Origin: a virus | Lineage: Duplodnaviria > Heunggongvirae > Uroviricota > Caudoviricetes | Virus record (IMG/VR): IMGVR_UViG_2565956708_000007 | Reading direction: 5' to 3' (one strand) | Length of the DNA: 64,000 nt | Shown: positions 15,471 to 27,330 of the stretch, piece by piece | Layout: each line of letters opens with the position of its first letter | Position numbering within the stretch: the first letter of the stretch is position 1 | Translations under genes and position numbers: made by a program | Notes under the pieces: generated by a model | What the model saw: the letters and a program-made list of their open reading frames with translations, nothing else | Told to the model about the DNA's origin: nothing | Database searches by the model: none

Positions 15471-18400
15471 ATGAACAAGCTATCTATGGGTGTGTTTCGC
15501 TGTTCAAGTGTCAGCGAAATATTGAAATACATTAGGACAATAACATCTCACCGAGCGCCGATTAAATACGGCGTGGAAAAGGTGGAAGGCAAAAGCTATG
15601 ACCGACTGCGCCGGGAGGCGAATCAGAAGGCGATAGATTTGCTTAATTCGCTGGTGGACGGCGCGACACTGACAGATGAACAGCGCCAGATCCTGGCCGG
15701 GTACACTGGTGAAGGCGGCATTGGCGGGTCCGTCTCCGAATATTACACACCAAAGCCTATCGCTGAAGGTGTCTGGGAGATCATGAAGCTCTACGGCGCG
15801 GACGTAGGTAACACTCTGGAACCATCGGCGGGAACCGGCGTTTTTAATGAGACAAAACCGGTTGGTACGGTGATGACCGCGACTGAGATCAGCAGTGTTT
15901 CCGGTCGTATAAACCAGTTGTTACACCCGGAAGACAGCGTACAGATTTCCCCGTTCGAACAGCTGGCTATAAACACGCCTAACGATTCATTCGACCATGT
16001 TGTGGGTAACGTTCCGTTCGGCGGTCGTGATAACACACGCAACATCGATAAGCCTTACGCAGAAGAAACGGACATGGGTTCTTACTTCATGCTCCGCATG
16101 CTGGACAAGATAAAGCCTGGCGGATTCATGTGTGTGATTGTGCCGCCGTCCATTGTTTCAGGTTCAAACATGAAGCGGTTACGCCTGCGCCTATCACGGA
16201 AAGCTGAATTTCTTGGCGCTCACCGCTTGCCTACCGGTACTTTTGACGCAAACGGGACCAGTACAGTCGTTGATGTGGTGCTGATGCGCAAACATCCGGC
16301 AGAGATGGCTGAGAAAATCCCCCTGGTGGATGAAAGCACTCTCGAATCGGCAAATGTGCTTTGGCCAACGTTTATTTCTGGCAAGTGGTTTGAAAAGGAC
16401 GGCCGCCGGTTTGTTCATGGCACCCAGGAAAAGGGCTTCCAGGGGCGTATTGAGGTTCGTGCCGACGGTCAGATTGATAACCAGGCTCTTAAAGCGAAGC
16501 TGATTCATCGTTTCGAAAGCCGTATCGACTGGTCTTTGCTCGATATGGCTGAACCGTCACCGACCGCAGACGTTGTTGGTGAAGGGGAAATGCGCCTGAT
16601 TAATGGCGTATGGCAAAAATATGCTGGTGGTCGCTGGATTGAAGCTGATGCCGGGAAGGAACTTAAGATCGATGCTGCCAGTTATGGCGCGGATAGCTGG
16701 GAGGCTCTTCAGCGTAACCTGACTACAACAGAAGGCCGTCTCGGCATGACATTTACCCAGATGGCAAATGTCCGCGATAAGTACACCACATCAATCAGCG
16801 ACGATATGGTGCAGCTGGTGGACTGGATTAACAGCCAGCCTGAAAAATACCGTGAACGCTTGTATCGCGGGGCGATGATTGGCCGGATGTTAATTGAATA
16901 TCAGGACATGAAGGCCGCCGGGCATAGTGCTGAACAAATCGAACAGCAGCGCCTTTCTCTGGTATCCCGTTTGCAGGCAGAGATTGACCGTTTTGGTAAC
17001 CCCGGTCGCGGTCCGATAGCGAAATTGTCGGGGAGCGGTGCGCGCGCCTGGTTTGCTTTCCGTGGTGCGATTAAGCTGGATGGCACTATTTCTGACGAGC
17101 TGACAGGAAAGCTGGTTACGCATGATTCCAGCGCCAGTTATGACTCCACCAGCTATCAGGACACCCTGCGTTATCTCTATAGCGATCTTACCCGCGATCC
17201 AATCCAGCTCGATGATTTCCGCCTTGCGTTTACCGGCGAACTGCCAGCCAGTGATGAAGAGTTGCTTAATTTATTGGCCAGCACCCCTGGTATTGCGGTT
17301 TCACCGTATGGCGGGATTGTTCCGTTCGCCCGCGCCACCAGCGGCGACATTAACGAGATAGTGGCTCCAAAACAGGAATTTCTTGCCACACTCCCCGACG
17401 GTCCAGTAAAGAACAACGTCCTTAATCAGCTGGCAGCGATCGAAGAGAAGCGCATCAAGACGCCAGCAGAGAATATCCGCTTTAAGCTCAATAGCCGTTG
17501 GTTCGACCGCTCCGTCATTCTGGAATTTTTGCAGGAAAACGGCTATCCGGATCTGCGCTATGTGCAGTCAGTGCAGCTGGAAGGCGACGAAATGGTTTCT
17601 GACACCTATCACGGTGGTGATGGTCTGTTCGTCGGGCACCGATACGGTGTCGTCCAGCGCAAGGATAAAGAAACAGGCGAGATCCGCTACGAGTGGGACC
17701 GTAAATCGGGTGAAAACGCGACCGGGTTCCCGGCACAGCTGGAAAAGTATCTCAATGGTGCGCGTATCGGTGGCAAAGATAGCGCGACGGCGAACGGCTA
17801 CCGCGAGCAGATGGCACTGCTTGAGGACCAGTTCAATAAGTGGATCAAGACGCACGATCGCTACGATGAGCTGGTTGCCAAATACAACGATGTGTTCAAT
17901 AGCAATATCCCGTATGAACACTCTGGCGATCCGCTTGGGTTGAAGGGATTAAGCGGTAAGCGCCAGCCATTTGATTACCAGAATAGCGAGGTGCGCCGAC
18001 TGTCCGAAGATGGGCGCGGCATCCTGGGCTTCGGCACCGGGCTGGGTAAAACCACGACCGCGCTGGCGCTTGAGGCGTTCAACTATGAGAACGGTCGCTC
18101 TACCCGTACTGCGTATGTAGTGCCTAAATCAGTGCTGGAAAATTGGTATTACGAAGCAAAAGAATTCCTGAGTGAAGAGGCATTCAGTAACTACTTGTTC
18201 GTCGGTCTTGATGTGCTGATGGATGGCGATCAGATTCGCCAGGTGCCGGTGCTCAATGAGAACGGTAAACCTGTTCTTGGTACTGATGGCACTCCAGTTA
18301 TGCGCGATGCTCTTAAGCTGGCAGATGAAGCCACTATCACGGCGCGGATGAACGCGATCCCGCACTCAAACTACCGTGCAGTCGTGTTTACCAAAGAACA

Positions 18401-21400
18401 ATACGCCCGCATTCCGCTACGTGATGACACCGTAGATGAGCATGCACAAGACATGCTTTATGACTTCGTTGCCGCCGGGCGCGTAGCCAGCGCAATGGAT
18501 TCCGACTCCCATCGTAAAGAGGCGGCGCGTCGCCGGGTATTGTCGGAGTATTCAGATACCGGTACCGAAAAAGCAGAGAAATATCCGTACTTTGAGGATA
18601 TGGGCTTCGATAGTGTGATCGCCGACGAAGGCCACAACTACCGCAATAGCTATAAAAATGGTCGCGAAGCGTCACAACTGGCCTATCTGCCCACCAGCGC
18701 GGTGGCGCAATCGGCGCGGGATATGGCAATCAAAAACGCGTACCTGATGAAAAAGAATGGCGGGCGCGGGCCGGTTCTCCTGACTGCAACGCCAGTCGTT
18801 AACACCCCGATCGATGCATACAACATGCTTTCTCATGTTCTGCCGAAGGAATACTGGCAGAAGATGGGGATCTACGGTCCTGATGACTTCGTTAAATTCT
18901 TCGGCAAGACCAGGCTGGAAACGGTACAGAAAATCAGCGGTGAAGTTGAAGAAAAAATGGCGCTGGTGGGCTTTGAAAACCTTGATGCGCTGCGCGGTAT
19001 ATTCCATCGCTGGGTAACGCTTAAAACGGCGGAAGACGTTAAGGATACCGTGGAGATCCCGGAGCTGGACGAACACCAGCAGGATGCACCACTTACTGAA
19101 GAACAACTGGCGGCGTATGAAGAATTGCGTCAGCAGGCGGAAGCGGCGGCCAAAGCCAACAATGGCGTAACGACCTCGGTCAATGAAGACGGCGTGATTG
19201 AGCACGAGAAAGCCCGTCCGATCTTCTCAATAATCAGGGATATGGACCGCGTATGTACTGACATGGACCTGTACTATCGCCGGATCACCTATCGTTTCCT
19301 GCCGGAGTACGCCGATGCGGTGCAGCAGCTGGCGGACAGTTTGCCTAAACAAGCCACCAGCGAAGACGACGACAGTGATGATTCAATCACGCAGCAATCG
19401 CAATACTCCCTGATAGATAAGGGCGAGTTTATTCAGTTGCAGGTTCCGGAAGCGTTCGAGCAGGAAGTGAATAAGCGCCTGGCCAGGTTTGGCATTGACG
19501 AACAGACCGTAACTCACCCCGTTACGCCGAAATACGCGAAGCTGATCGCCACGCTGAAGGAGTTTTTCCCGGAAGGTAAGCAAATCATCTTCACCGATGA
19601 AAAAACGCAGCACCAGAAGCTCAAGCGCATTATCTGCAATGCTCTAAACCTTGAACCTTCAAAGGTGGGGATCCTGAATGCTCAGACGGTTGCCGAGGCA
19701 GGTAAAACCGGTAAGAAACTGAAAGCGGTTAAACCGCCGAAAGAGTTACCGGATGAACCAACAGATGCACAGATAGCGAAATACAACGAGCAAATGGCTC
19801 TGTATGACGCCTATATCGCGCAGCAAAATGAAATGTCGTTGGGCGGTCTGGAAAAGATTGCAGCCGACTTCCAGGAGGGCCGGACTCCGATCATCATCTG
19901 CAACAAAAAGGCAGAGGTGGGTATCAACCTGCATCGAGGAACGACTGACATCCATCATCTGACGTTGCCATGGACTCCAGCCAGTATTGCGCAACGAAAC
20001 GGTCGCGGTGCCCGAGTTGGCTCCAACCGTGCAAGCGTTCGCGTTCACTACTACTGCGGCAAGGGTTCTTTCGATGAATACCGACTGAAGACGCTGAAGC
20101 GTAAAGCAGGCTGGATCTCCGATATCCTCCGTTCAGATAAGTCAGAAATGGAGAACGCCGACGCCAACGATATGATCGAAATGCAGATGTATACCGCTAA
20201 GGATGATGGCGAACGTCTGGCAATGATGCAGGTTCAAATGGATAAGGCGAAAGCCGCGCAACGCGCTCGCCAGAAAGAACAGGCTACTATCGACCTTCAG
20301 AACTACATCAAGGCGCAGCACGCAGCTGGTGAGGATGTGGAGGTGCTTACCGCTGAATTAGAGCGAAGCAAAGCGGAACTTGAAAAGACCACCGCCGAGG
20401 TAGCTAAATTCAAACAGGCGGCAATGGCCAAGGCAGCGGATAACGCAGACTGGAAGGCACGCTGGGGGAGTGTCCATCACACAGACCGTATGTTGTTAGC
20501 ACAGTATCGCGCGTCGTTGAAAAGCGCCATTCAGCGCAAGGCTAATATCTCTCAAGCCATCTCCCGCTATGAGAAATTATTGAACCGTACTCAGAAGGCC
20601 GCGACGGATATCAAACGCCTGCGCCCGCTGGTGGAGGATGCATTAAATAAAGGCATTCTGGATGTTGATCCTGACCTGGTTAACCATGCGAGTGAGTTCC
20701 TTGTTATCGGCGATCGCTCATGGCGTGTAGGCCAATACTACGATTGTGCCGGTGATATCGTTCGCATTAAGTCGCTGGACTTCGACAGCCAGCGCGCAGA
20801 CGTGGAGATCATCTTCACCTTCAAAGGCACCAAATCTGGTAACTGGGATGTGAAGACGCTGGATAAACAGGTTGATGTAACTCCCGATGAAGATGCTGTT
20901 ATGCAGAAAATCAGTGGTGGCGTCTCCATCGCCGGGATTAACGACATCGTTTCCTGTGACGATTTCTACCGTTTCCAGCAGCGCGGCATGATCAAAATCA
21001 CTGACTCATACGGTGTTCAGACTACAGAGTCAGGCTATAGCATTGATTTTGTTGGTACCTATACGGACCCACTGAAGCATGCGGTTTACCCGGATCGCCG
21101 TGACGGCGCGCTGAAGTCGTCAATTGCAAAATGGGTGCTTGGTATGATGTCGGAAGGGAATAACCGCCAGATCCGTTCGGCAGAAGCATTCCTGGTTGAA
21201 CTGTTTGGCTCCAATTATGGCGATGTAATCGCGTCATACGGAGATACGCTATCCCCTGAAGCAATTCAGGAGAAAATAGCGGATGCGATCGCCAGAATGC
21301 CGGAGAAAACAAGCCAGGGGGCTACTCGTAACGGGGATTCTGAACTTGAAGTCACCAATGCCATTTTCGGTACCAATGAGTTCCGGGCGTCAGATTATGA

Positions 21401-22238
21401 GATCACCACAGCACAGTTTGGCACCATTGGCATTTACAGCAATAAAGACGAGATCAAGCAGGCAATGGACGCAGCAAGCGCGCGCATTGCAGCAGAACGG
21501 AAAGTCAATCTGAATCATGCAGTCGCCGCGCTGACTCAATCGTGGGTAACAGCAATCAGGGAGGCCGCCACCACAGGAAAAATCACACCGGCAATTGCGG
21601 ATGTCGTAAACGACGGCTCTAAATTTATGGATGCCTATAAAATGGATGCGGTGCAGTTGCCATCAGCCTATGGGCAACTCAGCTATCGCATGACCTACAA
21701 CCTGGTATCAATGTTTACCGACCTTGCCATCCTTGGGCTGGTGGACCTTAACGAGGTTACGCCGGAATTGCTCAGCATGCGCAAGAATCATGTGGAGATA
21801 TTGCACAGAATTAACACGGTACTTGCCGGGCGCACCGATGAAGAGAAACAGGCAGACGCTGATCGGATAAACCTGGCCCTTGGCAACATCACGGAGGAAG
21901 AAATTGCTGCCAGAAACGAGAAACAAGAAGAGTTATCATCAATACAGGGTGATGCCACCAGCATAGCTCAGTCTCTTGGTCTGAATTATCGCGTATCCAC
22001 CGCCGACCTGAAGATGATGTACGCACCAAAATTCGCCGCTGGCGAGGTATTTGGGCTTCAGGAAGCCTCCGGCATGAAAGGGGTTCTTTTCCGTGCGAAA
22101 GACGCAATCAAGGCGAAATTCGGCGCTCGCTGGTTGCCAGCGAAGGCGAAGAACAGCGACTTCCCAGGTAACTGGTGGATTATCGAGACAAAACACAACG
22201 TGGCGGACGTTCTGGCCGTCATCCAACAATACGCATAA
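15471..22238 (+). CDS. darB: DarB, giant antirestriction protein with N6-adenine methyltransferase-like and DExH helicase domains
   Basis: 2255 aa; helicase motifs VIADEGHNYRN and LLTATPVVN read from translation. Confidence 0.85.
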   Translation: MNKLSMGVFRCSSVSEILKYIRTITSHRAPIKYGVEKVEGKSYDRLRREANQKAIDLLNSLVDGATLTDEQRQILAGYTGEGGIGGSVSEYYTPKPIAEGVWEIMKLYGADVGNTLEPSAGTGVFNETKPVGTVMTATEISSVSGRINQLLHPEDSVQISPFEQLAINTPNDSFDHVVGNVPFGGRDNTRNIDKPYAEETDMGSYFMLRMLDKIKPGGFMCVIVPPSIVSGSNMKRLRLRLSRKAEFLGAHRLPTGTFDANGTSTVVDVVLMRKHPAEMAEKIPLVDESTLESANVLWPTFISGKWFEKDGRRFVHGTQEKGFQGRIEVRADGQIDNQALKAKLIHRFESRIDWSLLDMAEPSPTADVVGEGEMRLINGVWQKYAGGRWIEADAGKELKIDAASYGADSWEALQRNLTTTEGRLGMTFTQMANVRDKYTTSISDDMVQLVDWINSQPEKYRERLYRGAMIGRMLIEYQDMKAAGHSAEQIEQQRLSLVSRLQAEIDRFGNPGRGPIAKLSGSGARAWFAFRGAIKLDGTISDELTGKLVTHDSSASYDSTSYQDTLRYLYSDLTRDPIQLDDFRLAFTGELPASDEELLNLLASTPGIAVSPYGGIVPFARATSGDINEIVAPKQEFLATLPDGPVKNNVLNQLAAIEEKRIKTPAENIRFKLNSRWFDRSVILEFLQENGYPDLRYVQSVQLEGDEMVSDTYHGGDGLFVGHRYGVVQRKDKETGEIRYEWDRKSGENATGFPAQLEKYLNGARIGGKDSATANGYREQMALLEDQFNKWIKTHDRYDELVAKYNDVFNSNIPYEHSGDPLGLKGLSGKRQPFDYQNSEVRRLSEDGRGILGFGTGLGKTTTALALEAFNYENGRSTRTAYVVPKSVLENWYYEAKEFLSEEAFSNYLFVGLDVLMDGDQIRQVPVLNENGKPVLGTDGTPVMRDALKLADEATITARMNAIPHSNYRAVVFTKEQYARIPLRDDTVDEHAQDMLYDFVAAGRVASAMDSDSHRKEAARRRVLSEYSDTGTEKAEKYPYFEDMGFDSVIADEGHNYRNSYKNGREASQLAYLPTSAVAQSARDMAIKNAYLMKKNGGRGPVLLTATPVVNTPIDAYNMLSHVLPKEYWQKMGIYGPDDFVKFFGKTRLETVQKISGEVEEKMALVGFENLDALRGIFHRWVTLKTAEDVKDTVEIPELDEHQQDAPLTEEQLAAYEELRQQAEAAAKANNGVTTSVNEDGVIEHEKARPIFSIIRDMDRVCTDMDLYYRRITYRFLPEYADAVQQLADSLPKQATSEDDDSDDSITQQSQYSLIDKGEFIQLQVPEAFEQEVNKRLARFGIDEQTVTHPVTPKYAKLIATLKEFFPEGKQIIFTDEKTQHQKLKRIICNALNLEPSKVGILNAQTVAEAGKTGKKLKAVKPPKELPDEPTDAQIAKYNEQMALYDAYIAQQNEMSLGGLEKIAADFQEGRTPIIICNKKAEVGINLHRGTTDIHHLTLPWTPASIAQRNGRGARVGSNRASVRVHYYCGKGSFDEYRLKTLKRKAGWISDILRSDKSEMENADANDMIEMQMYTAKDDGERLAMMQVQMDKAKAAQRARQKEQATIDLQNYIKAQHAAGEDVEVLTAELERSKAELEKTTAEVAKFKQAAMAKAADNADWKARWGSVHHTDRMLLAQYRASLKSAIQRKANISQAISRYEKLLNRTQKAATDIKRLRPLVEDALNKGILDVDPDLVNHASEFLVIGDRSWRVGQYYDCAGDIVRIKSLDFDSQRADVEIIFTFKGTKSGNWDVKTLDKQVDVTPDEDAVMQKISGGVSIAGINDIVSCDDFYRFQQRGMIKITDSYGVQTTESGYSIDFVGTYTDPLKHAVYPDRRDGALKSSIAKWVLGMMSEGNNRQIRSAEAFLVELFGSNYGDVIASYGDTLSPEAIQEKIADAIARMPEKTSQGATRNGDSELEVTNAIFGTNEFRASDYEITTAQFGTIGIYSNKDEIKQAMDAASARIAAERKVNLNHAVAALTQSWVTAIREAATTGKITPAIADVVNDGSKFMDAYKMDAVQLPSAYGQLSYRMTYNLVSMFTDLAILGLVDLNEVTPELLSMRKNHVEILHRINTVLAGRTDEEKQADADRINLALGNITEEEIAARNEKQEELSSIQGDATSIAQSLGLNYRVSTADLKMMYAPKFAAGEVFGLQEASGMKGVLFRAKDAIKAKFGARWLPAKAKNSDFPGNWWIIETKHNVADVLAVIQQYA

Positions 22239-22271: not shown

Positions 22272-22712
22272 ATGGCCACACTATCTGATACAATAAAACC
22301 GAATAAAACATATCTTGAGGCGGTACTCCGTACAGCGTTGTTAGGAAAGACAGAAGACGAATACGTTGATTTCTTCCTGTCAGGGCTACGCGGGCGATTA
22401 CTGAAAAATCCCCGCCTGTACCGCAGCTATGGTCCATACTGGCCGGAAATTAAAAAATTATTACTGGAGCGCGGTTATGGTAATTTCGGTCGTCTCGTTG
22501 ACCGTGACGTTCGCAAAATTTACCGTTATGACCGCCCGGCGCTAACACTCATAGCCGCGACGCTCTACAGCCAGGAGCGTTTTGATAATGGTCAGATATA
22601 CTCAGCCTGGCATTTACTGCCAGTGCCTGAAGAAGTTGACGACCAGGACTATGAGTTTGAGTCTTACGATTTGGAAGTTGAAGCCTTGGCACAGGCTGGA
22701 GAGAAAACTTGA
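22272..22712 (+). CDS. ulx: Ulx-like
   Basis: 146 aa ORF immediately downstream of darB; by position. Confidence 0.5.
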   Translation: MATLSDTIKPNKTYLEAVLRTALLGKTEDEYVDFFLSGLRGRLLKNPRLYRSYGPYWPEIKKLLLERGYGNFGRLVDRDVRKIYRYDRPALTLIAATLYSQERFDNGQIYSAWHLLPVPEEVDDQDYEFESYDLEVEALAQAGEKT

Positions 22713-22957
22713 AAAAGCGATACTACACAGTAAAGCATGGGACGCTACGAGCATTACAAGAGTTTGCTGACAAGCATAACGTTGAGGTGCGCAGGGAAGG
22801 GGGAAGTAAAGCTCTGCGCATGTACCGTCCGGACGGGAAATGGCGTACAGTCGTCGATTTCAAAACAAACAGTGTTCCCCAGGGCGTCCGCGACCGGGCA
22901 TTCGAAGAATGGGAGCAGATCATCATAGATAATGCATTGCTTCTCAATGCTGATTGA
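22709..22957 (+). CDS. lxc: Lxc-like (C1 co-repressor position)
   Basis: 82 aa, TTG start after GGAGAG; followed by hairpin GCCCGG-TTTGCA-CCGGGC. Confidence 0.5.
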   Translation: MKKRYYTVKHGTLRALQEFADKHNVEVRREGGSKALRMYRPDGKWRTVVDFKTNSVPQGVRDRAFEEWEQIIIDNALLLNAD

Positions 22958-23039
22958 GTTTTGTTGGCCCGGTTTGCACCGGGCGTTTCACAAACAATCA
23001 ACTGGTTTGTAGTTCCTGCGGCGAGATGAATTATTAATA

Positions 23040-23648
23040 TTATCGTGGTGCCGATGATGCGATAGCCTGTATGATGTTATCAATATCGTTATCGTTCAGC
23101 ATGAATATAGGTACACCATTAGAGTTTGCATTTTTTTCAGTGCTCATCAAACAAAGCCCCTCATACATGCCGCGAGTTTTTTTGAAATTGGCGACTGATG
23201 GAGTGGTGTAATTTCCTTTAAAGTGCATTCCGGCTGATTCATAAAAAGGAACCAAATCAGACTGGCAAATCAAAGCGACCTCATTTGGAAATGCAAGTAT
23301 TTCTGCCAGTATATTACTTCCAAGTCCATTACCACGATATTGCTCATATACATATATTTTATGACAGTACAACGGAAAATTTCCCGATGGATGTCCGAAG
23401 ATTAAGGCGTATCCGAACAAGTTTTCTTCATTAGTAAAGCCCATAATGCGCAAATGACCGGCTCGGTAACACTCTTCAAAAACGTTAATTATGTAGCTTC
23501 TCGCTGCTTTCAGCTCCTCTTCTGTCGGGAACATCATCAACCCCATAAGCGATGGAGTATAGGCCAGATCCTGAAGAATCCCATTAGCTTCATTTTCGAA
23601 AATTAGCGGTAAGTGCGGTACAATTTCATTTGCCGAGGTATTAGACAT
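23040..23648 (-). CDS. GNAT-family acyltransferase, low-GC accessory gene in the slot where P1 carries res/mod
   Basis: 202 aa; acetyl-CoA motif A QYRGNGLGSNILAEIL and motif-B-like LVPFYESAGMHF; visibly AT-rich gene and upstream region. Confidence 0.6.
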   Translation of the reverse strand: MSNTSANEIVPHLPLIFENEANGILQDLAYTPSLMGLMMFPTEEELKAARSYIINVFEECYRAGHLRIMGFTNEENLFGYALIFGHPSGNFPLYCHKIYVYEQYRGNGLGSNILAEILAFPNEVALICQSDLVPFYESAGMHFKGNYTTPSVANFKKTRGMYEGLCLMSTEKNANSNGVPIFMLNDNDIDNIIQAIASSAPR

Positions 23649-23656
23649 AGTATGGT

Positions 23657-23680
23657 GAGTCCTTTGTTTTCAAAGGACTC
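23657..23680. promoter_or_regulatory. Perfect palindrome GAGTCCTTTG-TTTT-CAAAGGACTC 9 bp upstream of the GNAT start codon
   Basis: 10-bp arms, 4-bp spacer; the only SD-like sequence (AAGGA) lies inside one arm. Confidence 0.5.
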
Positions 23681-23846
23681 ATGTTATCAGTGATAATCGT
23701 TTGTTGTAATAGTGTTGATAAAATAATTTTCTATTATGTAAGCAAGCTCATTTTTATGACGGGTAATGCAAAAAAAATAGAATCAAAAAACTAAAAAATA
23801 ATAATTCATGGGGTTTTACACCATCAAAAGTCCCCACTATAAATTA

Positions 23847-24488
23847 TTAGAAATAATTATGCTTGCCTGTTAATACCCCTTTCGGCACTTTTTTTTGTTC
23901 CAGTGTCTGGGTACCCAGAATTATGTTAATAAGTGGACTTAGTAACGATGGTTCCTGGCGGGCTTCAACTTCTCCAGCCATTGCCCTGATGTAGTCGGCG
24001 CTGGCAACGTTGTTGTATTCCGTCGCAAAGCAACATAGTAACGTCAGAACATGCTCTGTCGTTATTTCGCTCCAGTTGATGTTGAAAAATTCATCGCCTT
24101 TTTTATCGTGTTCGGAATCGAAGATGCTTTGGTGGAGGATGTATTTGCCGGATTCCTTGCGCGGTAACTTGATCGCTTTCTGGCGTTCCAGCTCCTTGTA
24201 AATCTGCATTGCTTCAATCAGTACCGGCCTGCCGTTCATGAAGGGATCGCGCAACCTTACACGCTGGCCAACTCGACCAGTAATAAAGCTGTTTTCCTCT
24301 TCCACCAGCACGATAAAACCCTTTTCCTCTTTTTCTCGCAATTCGCGCAGCAGCTGGAGTTCCATGTCGCGGCGGCGTTCAGGGTAGCTGGTCCGCTCAG
24401 CCATTATCAGCTCGTTGTTGATCCATGCAGCAGTCATTGACGCCGGTTTGCCGACGCTCATCGAAACAACGCATATTTTCTTATCCAT
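23847..24488 (-). CDS. mat: Mat-like protein
   Basis: ORF between the variable slot and ref; by position; start chosen at MDKKICVV. Confidence 0.45.
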   Translation of the reverse strand: MDKKICVVSMSVGKPASMTAAWINNELIMAERTSYPERRRDMELQLLRELREKEEKGFIVLVEEENSFITGRVGQRVRLRDPFMNGRPVLIEAMQIYKELERQKAIKLPRKESGKYILHQSIFDSEHDKKGDEFFNINWSEITTEHVLTLLCCFATEYNNVASADYIRAMAGEVEARQEPSLLSPLINIILGTQTLEQKKVPKGVLTGKHNYF

Positions 24489-24676
24489 AGCGCCCCTACA
24501 AAAAAGAAAAGCCACCAGCGGCGGCTTAGCAATACAACTGAAGGTAGCGCCCGGTACTCAGACTGTGCCGTCCATGGAATATTTGAAAAGGGATCCATCC
24601 GTACCGGGCGTGTGATGATTCTGACTCAAGTCACTTGTCAGTTGTCAATCATTTAAGATTAAAAATAATATATTTA

Positions 24677-25237
24677 TTAGTGCATGATGTTTGCCATTTC
24701 ATAGGCGTCAGCCAGCAACTCCATCTCTGACTTGTTCAACAAGGTGAATTCTTTCTTGCCTCCTACCACGCCATCGGCATGAACAGGGACCAGCCAGGGG
24801 TATTTTTCTCTTACTTCAGCCGGTGCTGCATGCTGGTGGTGCCATCTGCAAAGGGGCAATTGCTTTTTGTGACAACCCGGCGCGGTACGACCGGAGATAT
24901 GGTGCAGAGACACCTCTTCAGATATTACTCCATGCATGTAGCAGGCAATGCAGGGGAGAGTGCCAAGAGCATTGGCGATAGTCTGTTCCTCCTCCGTCGG
25001 TGTTCGCCCCTTCAAGCCACGAGATTTTATTTTTACCGCACTTTTCCGCGTTTTGCTGGCTGGTGGGCGCTCTTTCTGTTTAGCGATACGACGGTCGATA
25101 GAATCCCGCATTTTCTGATATTGCGATTCTCGCCAGGCGGGGTCAGCCAACTTTTCCCGTTGCCGAGCGATCGCTCGTTCTCTGGCTGCCTTCTGCCACT
25201 CGCGGCGCTGTTCAAGTTTTTGTTCGATTGTTTTCAT
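24677..25237 (-). CDS. ref: Ref, HNH-family recombination enhancement nuclease
   Basis: Basic N-terminal region then Cys/His cluster CIACYMHG...LHHISGR...CRWHHQHA; start MKTIEQ. Confidence 0.75.
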   Translation of the reverse strand: MKTIEQKLEQRREWQKAARERAIARQREKLADPAWRESQYQKMRDSIDRRIAKQKERPPASKTRKSAVKIKSRGLKGRTPTEEEQTIANALGTLPCIACYMHGVISEEVSLHHISGRTAPGCHKKQLPLCRWHHQHAAPAEVREKYPWLVPVHADGVVGGKKEFTLLNKSEMELLADAYEMANIMH

Positions 25238-25846: not shown

Positions 25847-26878
25847 CTAATCGCCATCTTCCAGCAGGCGCACCATTGCCCCTGTTTCACTATCCAGGTT
25901 ACGGATATAGTTCATGACAATATTTACGTTGGTCCAGCCACCAGCTTGCATGATCTCCGGTATAGAAACTCCGGCGCGGGCCATATCTCGCGCGGCACCG
26001 ACACGGGCACTATGTCCAGACCAGGCCAGGTATCGCTGACCAGAGTCATCTTTTGCCCCGTAAATCAATCGGTGAGTTGCTTCAAAAATCCCTTCCAGGG
26101 CGCGAGTTGATAGCTGGCTGGTGGGTGATGGTGAGGCAACACCATTTTTTCTGACCCGGCAAAACAGGTAGTTATTCGGATCATCAGCCACACCAGAGAC
26201 AGAAATCCATCGCTCGACCAGTTTAGTTACCCCCAGGCTAAGTGCCTTCTCTACACCTGCGGTGCTAACCAGCGTTTTCGTTCTGCCAATATGGATTAAC
26301 ATTCTCCCACCGTCAGTACGTGAGATATCTTTAACCCTGATCCTGGCAATTTCGGCTATACGTAACAGGGTGTTATAAGCAATCCCCAGAAATGCCAGAT
26401 TACGTATATCCTGGCAGCGATCGCTATTTTCCATGAGTGAACGAACCTGGTCGAAATCAGTGCGTTCGAACGCTAGTGCCTGTTTTGCACGTTCACCGGC
26501 ATCAACGTTTTCTTTTCGGATCCGCCGCATAACCAGTGAAACAGCATTGCTATCACTTGGTCGCTGCAGCCCGGACCGACGATGAAGCATGTTTAGCTGG
26601 CCCAAATGTTGCTGGATAGTTTTTACTGCCAGACCGCGCGCCTGAAGATATAGAAGATAATCGCGAACATCTTCAGGTTCTGCGGGAAACCATTTCCGGT
26701 TATTCAACTTGCACCATGCCGCCCACGACCGGCAAACGGACAGAAGCATTTTCCAGGTATGCTCAGAAAACGCCTGGCGATCCCTGAACATGTCCATCAG
26801 GTTCTTGCGAACCTCATCACTCGTTGCATCGACCGGCAATGCAGGCAAATTTTGGTGTACGGTCAGTAAATTGGACAT
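25847..26878 (-). CDS. cre: Cre tyrosine recombinase
   Basis: 343 aa, MSNLLTVHQNLPALPVDATSDEVRKNLMDMFRDRQAFSEHTWKMLLSVCRSWAAWCKLNNRKWFPAEPEDVRDYLLYLQARGLAVKTIQQHLGQLNMLHRRSGL... almost identical to P1 Cre as I recall it. Confidence 0.97.
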   Translation of the reverse strand: MSNLLTVHQNLPALPVDATSDEVRKNLMDMFRDRQAFSEHTWKMLLSVCRSWAAWCKLNNRKWFPAEPEDVRDYLLYLQARGLAVKTIQQHLGQLNMLHRRSGLQRPSDSNAVSLVMRRIRKENVDAGERAKQALAFERTDFDQVRSLMENSDRCQDIRNLAFLGIAYNTLLRIAEIARIRVKDISRTDGGRMLIHIGRTKTLVSTAGVEKALSLGVTKLVERWISVSGVADDPNNYLFCRVRKNGVASPSPTSQLSTRALEGIFEATHRLIYGAKDDSGQRYLAWSGHSARVGAARDMARAGVSIPEIMQAGGWTNVNIVMNYIRNLDSETGAMVRLLEDGD

Positions 26879-27296: not shown

Positions 27297-27330
27297 ATAA
27301 CTTCGTATAATGTATGCTATACGAAGTTAT
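27297..27330. other. loxP site
   Basis: Exact ATAACTTCGTATA-ATGTATGC-TATACGAAGTTAT. Confidence 0.97.

Follow-up and report, generated by a model that had tools for sequence, protein, structure and literature searches.

The GNAT cassette and its genomic context

By its sequence, the window, i.e. the entire stretch of 64,000 nucleotides analysed here, can be identified as a P1-like phage-plasmid. The 1.9 kb segment that was used as query (window 22700-24600) shares 100% identity with the 95 kb plasmid pATCC10729_02 of Salmonella Pomona (NZ_CP019188.1), and the genes following mat are arranged as ref, a 103-aa ORF (c8 in the P1 record), cre and then loxP (Table 1). Between the stop codons of lxc and mat (22958-23846) lies a slot that in the window harbors a gene for a GNAT acetyltransferase, and that in relatives is occupied by EcoP1 res/mod (P1) or by a RelA/SpoT-domain, SIR2, PIN or DUF2971 gene, and is empty in phage RCS47. 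This slot corresponds to the 'highly variable region 1 (res-mod)' of P1-like phage-plasmids (PMC9603915). The GNAT cassette resembles the res-mod cargo cassettes or 'morons' described there (PMC9603915) in that one accessory gene occupies the lxc-mat slot together with a promoter-like element of its own and a hairpin downstream, but that literature deals with the gene content of the slot and not with the present palindrome or the control of GNAT expression. On the regulation of the slot, our literature search retrieved nothing beyond this catalogue of variable regions. A separate leader and a separate GC hairpin following lxc accompany each alternative cargo, and the GC-rich hairpin between the convergent lxc and GNAT genes is probably the terminator of the cassette. 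Several of the alternative cargoes resemble defence effectors.

Table 1. Features of the GNAT locus and its surroundings, in window coordinates.
Feature	Position	Strand	Basis or remark
darB	15471-22238	+	
ulx	22272-22712	+	
lxc	22709-22957	+	
GC-rich hairpin GCCCGG-N6-CCGGGC between the convergent lxc and GNAT stop codons	22966..22984	.	equivalent present after lxc for each alternative cargo
GNAT acetyltransferase cargo gene, 202 aa (start codon 23646-23648)	23040..23648	-	Pfam; identity to PDB 9s30; AlphaFold
13-codon uORF MSPLKTKDSPYYV	23641..23682	-	runs from the -10/stem junction through the hairpin; stop over GNAT codons 2-3
AT-rich spacer/leader, 198 nt, from mat stop to GNAT start	23649..23846	-	weak upstream promoter-like TTGATG-18-TATTAT, 23827->23798
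Perfect palindrome, 11-bp arms TGAGTCCTTTG/CAAAGGACTCA, 4-nt loop	23656..23681	.	intact in 11/11 window-lineage loci
3′ arm CAAAGGACUCA, holding the Shine-Dalgarno (SD) sequence	23656..23666	-	keeps the family-conserved C(G/A)AAGGA block (alignment)
SD-like AAGGA, 11 nt before AUG	23660..23664	-	sequence
5′ arm, UGAGUCCUUUG in mRNA sense, putative anti-SD role	23671..23681	-	leader alignment; 0/2000 shuffles
TGATAACAT, candidate extended -10 (TG 23689-23688, hexamer 23686-23681)	23681..23689	-	invariant columns, 15 leaders
mat homologue, co-directional and directly upstream; possible source of read-through	23847..24488	-	homology
cre	25847-26878	-	
loxP	27297-27330		

The identity of the GNAT product is confirmed by matches above cut-off to the Pfam families Acetyltransf_10/_1 and by 100% amino acid identity to PDB entry 9s30, 'GNAT family N-acetyltransferase'. 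Its AlphaFold model (pLDDT 88) has a generic GNAT fold with no separate DNA-binding domain, and the closest solved folds are those of the polyamine/arylalkylamine acetyltransferases SpeG, PaiA, AANAT and ElaA (TM 0.4-0.5). As the fold is unlike that of known toxins, it provides no independent reason to expect tight control of the gene. A GNAT toxin-antitoxin module of the TacAT/AtaRT/KacAT type, in which a tRNA-acetylating toxin and its antitoxin are autoregulated through a palindromic operator, was considered and rejected, since no small ORF and no RHH or DUF1778 antitoxin adjoins the gene and no TacT/AtaT-type toxin occurs among its listed sequence and fold matches, which are headed in both cases by polyamine and arylalkylamine acetyltransferases. 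Annotation as a defence system or toxin is likewise unsupported: the PADLOC and NCBIfam searches returned no match, and in PHROGs the protein belongs to PHROG 10454, a family of unknown function. No paper on the protein or on PDB 9s30 was found in the literature.

The cassette is rare, being present in 12 of the 5,426 complete E. coli genomes, always on a plasmid, and in 19 plasmids of PLSDB (97.4-100% identity). The wider GNAT family is small and mobile, with members on P1-like plasmids of E. coli and E. albertii (84% DNA identity), on Klebsiella plasmids and Serratia chromosomes, in Providencia and Enterobacter, and in metagenomes. Family members elsewhere adjoin AbiTii, NACHT-like and ParE genes and IS elements (loci L074, 1724-2644; L016, 5223 onward; L015 and L025), and these neighbours appear consistent with defence-island or mobile contexts.

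The mat homologue precedes the GNAT gene by 198 nt on the same strand. Its control region (~24600-24715) is 96% identical to Omat/Pmat/LPmat of P1, and in the annotated P1 record mat is served by two promoters, Pmat (sigma-70) and the late promoter LPmat (Lpa-dependent), together with the C1 operator Omat. The annotated mat product comprises 213 aa in the window versus 250 aa in P1, and the P1-type start (ATGGATCCC, ~24598) opens just a 46-aa ORF in the window. The interval between the two mat starts, in the 5′ region of mat, contains a hairpin with a T-run that resembles a terminator (24527->24509, minus strand) and might limit read-through.

A perfect palindrome over the ribosome-binding region

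An earlier note on this DNA had described a perfect palindrome with 10-bp arms upstream of the GNAT gene. This palindrome is present on the plus strand at 23657-23680 (GAGTCCTTTG-TTTT-CAAAGGACTC), but one further complementary pair outside the core extends the arms to 11 bp. The GNAT ORF lies on the minus strand, and the hairpin in mRNA sense thus reads UGAGUCCUUUG-AAAA-CAAAGGACUCA, followed by CCAUACU and the AUG start codon. The distance of 9 bp to the ATG given in the earlier note is the same fact counted otherwise, as the 10-bp palindrome ends 8 nt (ACCAUACU) and the 11-bp stem 7 nt before the AUG. The same note had placed the sole SD-like sequence in one of the arms, and AAGGA (23664-23660) is indeed the only such sequence within the last 20 nt of the leader and is situated in the 3′ arm. 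The spacing between this sequence and the AUG is 11 nt in the window versus 7-8 nt in relatives.

The palindrome is genuine and is not a product of chance. In the 64-kb window there are six perfect hairpins with arms of 11 bp and loops of 3-8 nt, compared with a mean of 0.1 in 60 dinucleotide-preserving shuffles of it, while for 10-bp arms there are 12 hits at 8 places versus a shuffle mean of 0.37 hits, with overlapping registers counted as separate hits. Shuffling of the window leader never yielded an upstream segment that was complementary to the SD region over the observed length (0/2000).

Several other identities for the palindrome were rejected. It is absent from the output of the scan for intrinsic (Rho-independent) terminators on either strand; its flanking tails read ACCAUACU (minus strand) and TGTTATCA (plus strand). 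As the exact matches in IMG/VR represent only the same cassette, a MITE or other dispersed repeat is not indicated, nor is a regulatory palindrome common to the cargo cassettes of the slot, given that none of the alternatives (RelA/SpoT, SIR2, PIN, DUF2971) carries it. The covariance models of Rfam 15 gave no match at E <= 1 in window 22900-24000. A second perfect palindrome, TTATCA-C-TGATAA (6-1-6; window 23684-23696), coincides in part with the candidate -10 element, at its TG and its first bases, and is also specific to the window lineage.

Comparison of the leader within the GNAT family

Fifteen distinct leaders, which accompany proteins of ~54-100% identity, were aligned from -85 to +45. 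Conservation or covariation of the hairpin across the family was rejected on the basis of this alignment: the hairpin columns pair in 44.5% of cells, versus 30-47% in slid controls, and the RNAalifold consensus of the 15 leaders amounts to -0.46 kcal/mol. The perfect palindrome was observed in all of the window-lineage loci fetched (11/11) and was found nowhere else, and the sequences thus indicate that the hairpin is confined to a single near-clonal, recent lineage. The view in the earlier note that the gene is specifically regulated is not demonstrated by these data, the hairpin being absent from all diverged homologous leaders.

In the sub-lineage with 97% identity there are zero changes inside the 26-nt palindrome, where ~0.8 would be expected at 3.2% divergence, and an adjacent C>T change extends the stem to 12 bp (-16.6 kcal/mol); divergence within the lineage is, however, too low for selection on the palindrome to be demonstrable from it. 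Relative to the family consensus CAGGCTTT(A/G), the 5′ arm has undergone ~3 substitutions and one insertion, all toward complementarity, and the 3′ arm retains the ancestral C(G/A)AAGGA block. Templated correction of quasi-palindromes is known to yield clustered changes of this kind, and the pattern in the 5′ arm could reflect either this process or selection.

The palindrome could thus be neutral, i.e. a quasi-palindrome in a fast-evolving leader that was perfected by templated (strand-switch) mutation or by drift and hitch-hiked in a near-clonal cassette, with transcription starting inside it so that the hairpin never matters. Such an origin would account for the clustered changes in the 5′ arm, for the twelfth pair in the 97% sub-lineage and for the restriction of the palindrome to one near-identical lineage among the diverged homologues, and it is compatible with the conserved -10 block described below, which predicts a start inside the 5′ arm. 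Drift alone is, however, very unlikely to place a perfect 11-bp hairpin exactly over the SD sequence, as judged by the shuffles of the leader (0/2000) and of the window (0.1 per 64 kb), and, selected or not, the hairpin would matter in any transcript reading through from mat, which is co-directional. We regard a neutral palindrome as rather unlikely, though well worth keeping in view; were it the case, the hairpin would have annotation value only.

A candidate extended -10 element adjoining the stem

In the alignment of the 15 leaders, nine non-coding columns are invariant, and six of them make up the block T-G-n-T-A-n-n-A-T, which also occurs at locus L074. These are the positions that sigma-70 reads in an extended -10 element (TGnTATAAT), and the assignment of TGATAACAT as a promoter element is based on the invariant block together with this consensus. 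In the form TGnTAAYAT, the block precedes the start codon by ~35-45 nt in every family leader whose protein has ~54% identity or more (the window, L002-L008, L015-L019, L024, L025, L030, L063 and L074), and it probably represents an extended -10 promoter that travels with the gene.

The 11-bp stem begins with the last T of TGATAACAT. The nominal +1 (~23674), 7 nt downstream of the -10, falls inside the 5′ arm; this base and its neighbours (23675-23672) are pyrimidines, and the nearest purines lie 10-11 nt from the -10 hexamer. Because the conserved -10 abuts the stem, its transcript is predicted to lack the 5′ arm. The earlier note had named a transcription start downstream of the palindrome as speaking against its own reading, and for the promoter of the cassette itself the comparative data predict a start of this sort, whose transcript lacks the 5′ arm.

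The weak promoter-like site in the AT-rich spacer scores 9 of 12, and the counts of such sites are 8 versus 4.1 +/- 2.1 and 6 versus 2.4 +/- 1.6 in the sequence and in shuffles, respectively. An antisense promoter-like site, TCGAAA-17-TACAAT (window 23596-23624, plus strand), lies in the 5′ coding region of the GNAT gene and points across the start codon, the SD sequence and the palindrome; it also scores 9 of 12, and the regional count of 8 is within ~2 SD of the shuffle mean (4.1 +/- 2.1).

Predicted folding of the leader and accessibility of the SD sequence

The earlier note had proposed that the palindrome forms an RNA hairpin which hides the SD sequence, and had recommended that the leader be folded. 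Folding predicts a stable stem with the SD sequence in its 3′ arm, the hairpin alone reaching -13.9 kcal/mol with 10 bp and -15.5 kcal/mol with 11 bp, and the leader has a folding z-score of -3.8 to -4.7. When both arms are included in the transcript, the probability of AAGGA being unpaired is 0.00 in silico, and opening of the ribosome-binding site (RBS) is predicted to cost ~14-16 kcal/mol. This value ranks fourth among the 43 annotated genes of the plasmid, three others having an equal or higher predicted cost; it is thus high but not exceptional on this plasmid.

The predicted cost depends on where the transcript begins, with values of 10.7-15.8 kcal/mol if the 5′ end lies at 23678 or further upstream and of 3.3-4.3 kcal/mol if it lies between 23675 and 23670, and the accessibility of the RBS thus switches sharply with the 5′ end. 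Occlusion of the SD sequence is therefore partly supported: in the folding model it is thermodynamically sound if both arms are transcribed, and it is conditional on the position of the transcription start.

A start further upstream, in the AT-rich spacer or in mat, would place the hairpin in every GNAT mRNA, where it would keep translation low unless relieved by translation of the uORF, by temperature or by another factor. The stability of the hairpin and its fully paired SD sequence would suit such an attenuator, as would the promoter-like site in the spacer, the long SD-AUG spacing of 11 nt, which also points to low expression, and the precedent of IS200 (PMC4513863). The uORF spans the hairpin and its stop overlaps the GNAT gene, a geometry compatible with translational coupling, and its frame and stop position recur in several relatives; however, it lacks an SD sequence and the window lineage alone has its start codon. 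A conserved leader peptide was accordingly rejected, as the start codon is not kept in the family. Sites resembling the upstream promoter are, furthermore, about as frequent in shuffled sequence, no leader structure is conserved among the 15 leaders or matched in Rfam, and the invariant TGnTAAYAT at the stem is best explained as the promoter of the family. An attenuator acting on all GNAT mRNA is hence, in our estimation, quite unlikely.

Possible insulation of the GNAT gene from read-through transcription

No intrinsic terminator was predicted by the scan on the minus strand between mat and the GNAT gene, and since mat is co-directional, transcripts reading through from it would carry both arms of the palindrome. 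We tentatively propose, at somewhat less than an even chance, that the hairpin silences translation of mat read-through transcripts while the cassette's own transcript escapes. The palindrome would then be a lineage-specific cis RNA hairpin in which the GNAT SD sequence pairs with an upstream anti-SD arm, in need of no dedicated protein partner, and its formation would depend on the 5′ end of the transcript. Transcription from the cassette's own promoter TGATAACAT would start at ~23675-23670, inside the 5′ arm, and yield an mRNA without the anti-SD arm and with an accessible SD sequence, while transcripts from mat (Pmat/LPmat) or from promoters in the AT-rich spacer would include both arms and be translationally silent with respect to the GNAT gene. 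The net effect would be production of the GNAT protein from the cassette's promoter, e.g. in the plasmid-prophage state, and insulation of the gene from lytic-phase read-through. The start site, the read-through and the effect on translation are steps that we infer.

An arrangement of this kind is familiar from IS10 and IS50, which silence read-through transcripts and have their own start inside an inverted repeat. The GNAT leader is similar in that an inverted repeat brackets the RBS, the gene's own start is predicted inside the repeat, and the RBS would be hidden in transcripts from upstream, which contain both arms. It differs in that the GNAT gene does not encode a transposase, the start and the read-through are predictions in the present case, and no antisense RNA component is evident. 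The logic of shielding is thus already known from IS elements and the palindrome reveals no new kind of regulation: it is an ordinary kind of cis element, a new instance in a known hypervariable slot, and could at best act as an ordinary cis-acting brake on translation. If the proposal is correct, the locus would provide a minimal example of an accessory gene shielded from the phage's own transcription programme, and would help to predict the expression of cargo (RelA/SpoT, SIR2, PIN, GNAT) in the P1 lxc-mat hotspot.

Upstream of the -10 block, segments complementary to the SD sequence are present in 3 of the 5 lineages with a close co-directional upstream gene versus 0 of the 11 others, a post-hoc observation that gives weak support to insulation from read-through. 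In shuffles, anti-SD matches are obtained in 116/2000 cases (5.8%) for UTME12 and in 187/2000 (9.4%) for P0016, each of which is compatible with chance. Recurrent sequestration of the SD sequence as a feature of the family was rejected, as the window alone is significant, UTME12 and P0016 are marginal and 13 other lineages show nothing. The broader proposition, that the palindrome is a selected, promoter-embedded insulator by which translation of cargo is restricted to transcripts of its own promoter in the prophage state while lytic read-through from the C1/Lpa-controlled mat operon is silenced, and that other cargo cassettes downstream of co-directional genes may independently gain anti-SD arms (UTME12 and P0016 being possible cases), is an unlikely one as it stands.

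Comparison with other leaders and with a DNA operator

A stem-loop in the leader of IS200 tnpA sequesters the SD sequence, and its disruption results in ~20-fold more 30S toeprinting (PMC4513863). Both there and in the proposed GNAT hairpin, the SD sequence and an anti-SD segment upstream of it are the partners in a cis stem-loop, and no dedicated activator protein is involved. The IS200 stem-loop is, however, long, conserved across copies, contained within a mapped 5′UTR and functions together with an antisense sRNA and Hfq, whereas the GNAT hairpin is a short, perfect 11-bp stem that is lineage-specific and may be absent from the main mRNA. Diverged homologues offer no compensatory changes in the stem, as the hairpin is missing from them.

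The earlier note had also likened the arrangement to that of the mom gene of phage Mu, where Com, a zinc-finger protein encoded just upstream, binds an adjacent hairpin with a CC(N)2-3GAG loop and melts a translation-inhibition structure (PMC6483171). The two cases are alike in that a phage-borne accessory gene of the modification type is concerned whose start signals can be buried in RNA structure, in silico in the present case; Mu requires both Com and its motif, neither of which is present here, and the analogy therefore does not hold. The statement in the note that a com-like ORF is missing is borne out for the whole plasmid, on which the small ORFs with CxxC...CxxC motifs are all remote from the GNAT gene. 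The minus strand of the leader contains no ORF of at least 20 aa other than a cysteine-free one of 27 aa, and a tblastn search with a Mu Com query returned chance matches only (E >= 2). The CC(N)2-3GAG motif is absent from the 198-nt leader, the loop of the hairpin being AAAA.

As an alternative to the RNA hairpin, the note had suggested that the palindrome could serve as the DNA operator of a dimeric repressor. The binding protein might then be a host protein, a P1 core protein or the GNAT protein itself. The position of the palindrome is a classical one for repression of transcription, a perfect dyad at ~-7 to +19 of the candidate promoter that overlaps the predicted start, and the inner 6-4-6 CCTTTG-N4-CAAAGG has a centre-to-centre spacing of 10 bp. 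The cassette consists, however, of a single gene without a regulator, and the GNAT model has no separate DNA-binding domain that could fill this role. The search for the palindrome elsewhere in the genome, which the note had advised, revealed no second copy on the 95-kb plasmid, even with up to 3 mismatches, and no copy was found on E. coli chromosomes (5,426 genomes) or elsewhere in IMG/VR. Half-sites with at most one mismatch number 6 versus 3.2 expected in the window (reached in 13 of 100 shuffles) and 5 versus 1.9 in the rest of the plasmid (5 of 100 shuffles), neither count being clearly above chance. The palindrome matches neither the asymmetric P1 C1 operator nor the annotated LPmat -22 box, and the homologous cassettes of the same P1 slot do not carry it. 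With its position and dyad symmetry set against these findings, which provide no positive evidence for a repressor site, an operator function appears very improbable.

Two further predicted structures were observed in leaders other than that of the window. Leaders of the Serratia/Klebsiella clade contain a segment, CUAUCCGUUUCGCUGC, whose pairing with codons 5-10 (GCAGCAAAUGAGAUAG) would enclose the RBS (L007 and L008, ~1455-1530, with equivalents in L004, L015 and L025); this helix, which was derived from one member, pairs in 72.9% of cells versus 30-45% in slid controls, with robust covariation measures not above those of shuffles. In the leader of the RelA/SpoT cargo of E. coli pE2-2 (L011, ~1690-1790), pairing of ACATTCTCCATTG with CAATGGGGAATG is predicted to bury the start codon, a possible case of independent translational occlusion in the same slot.
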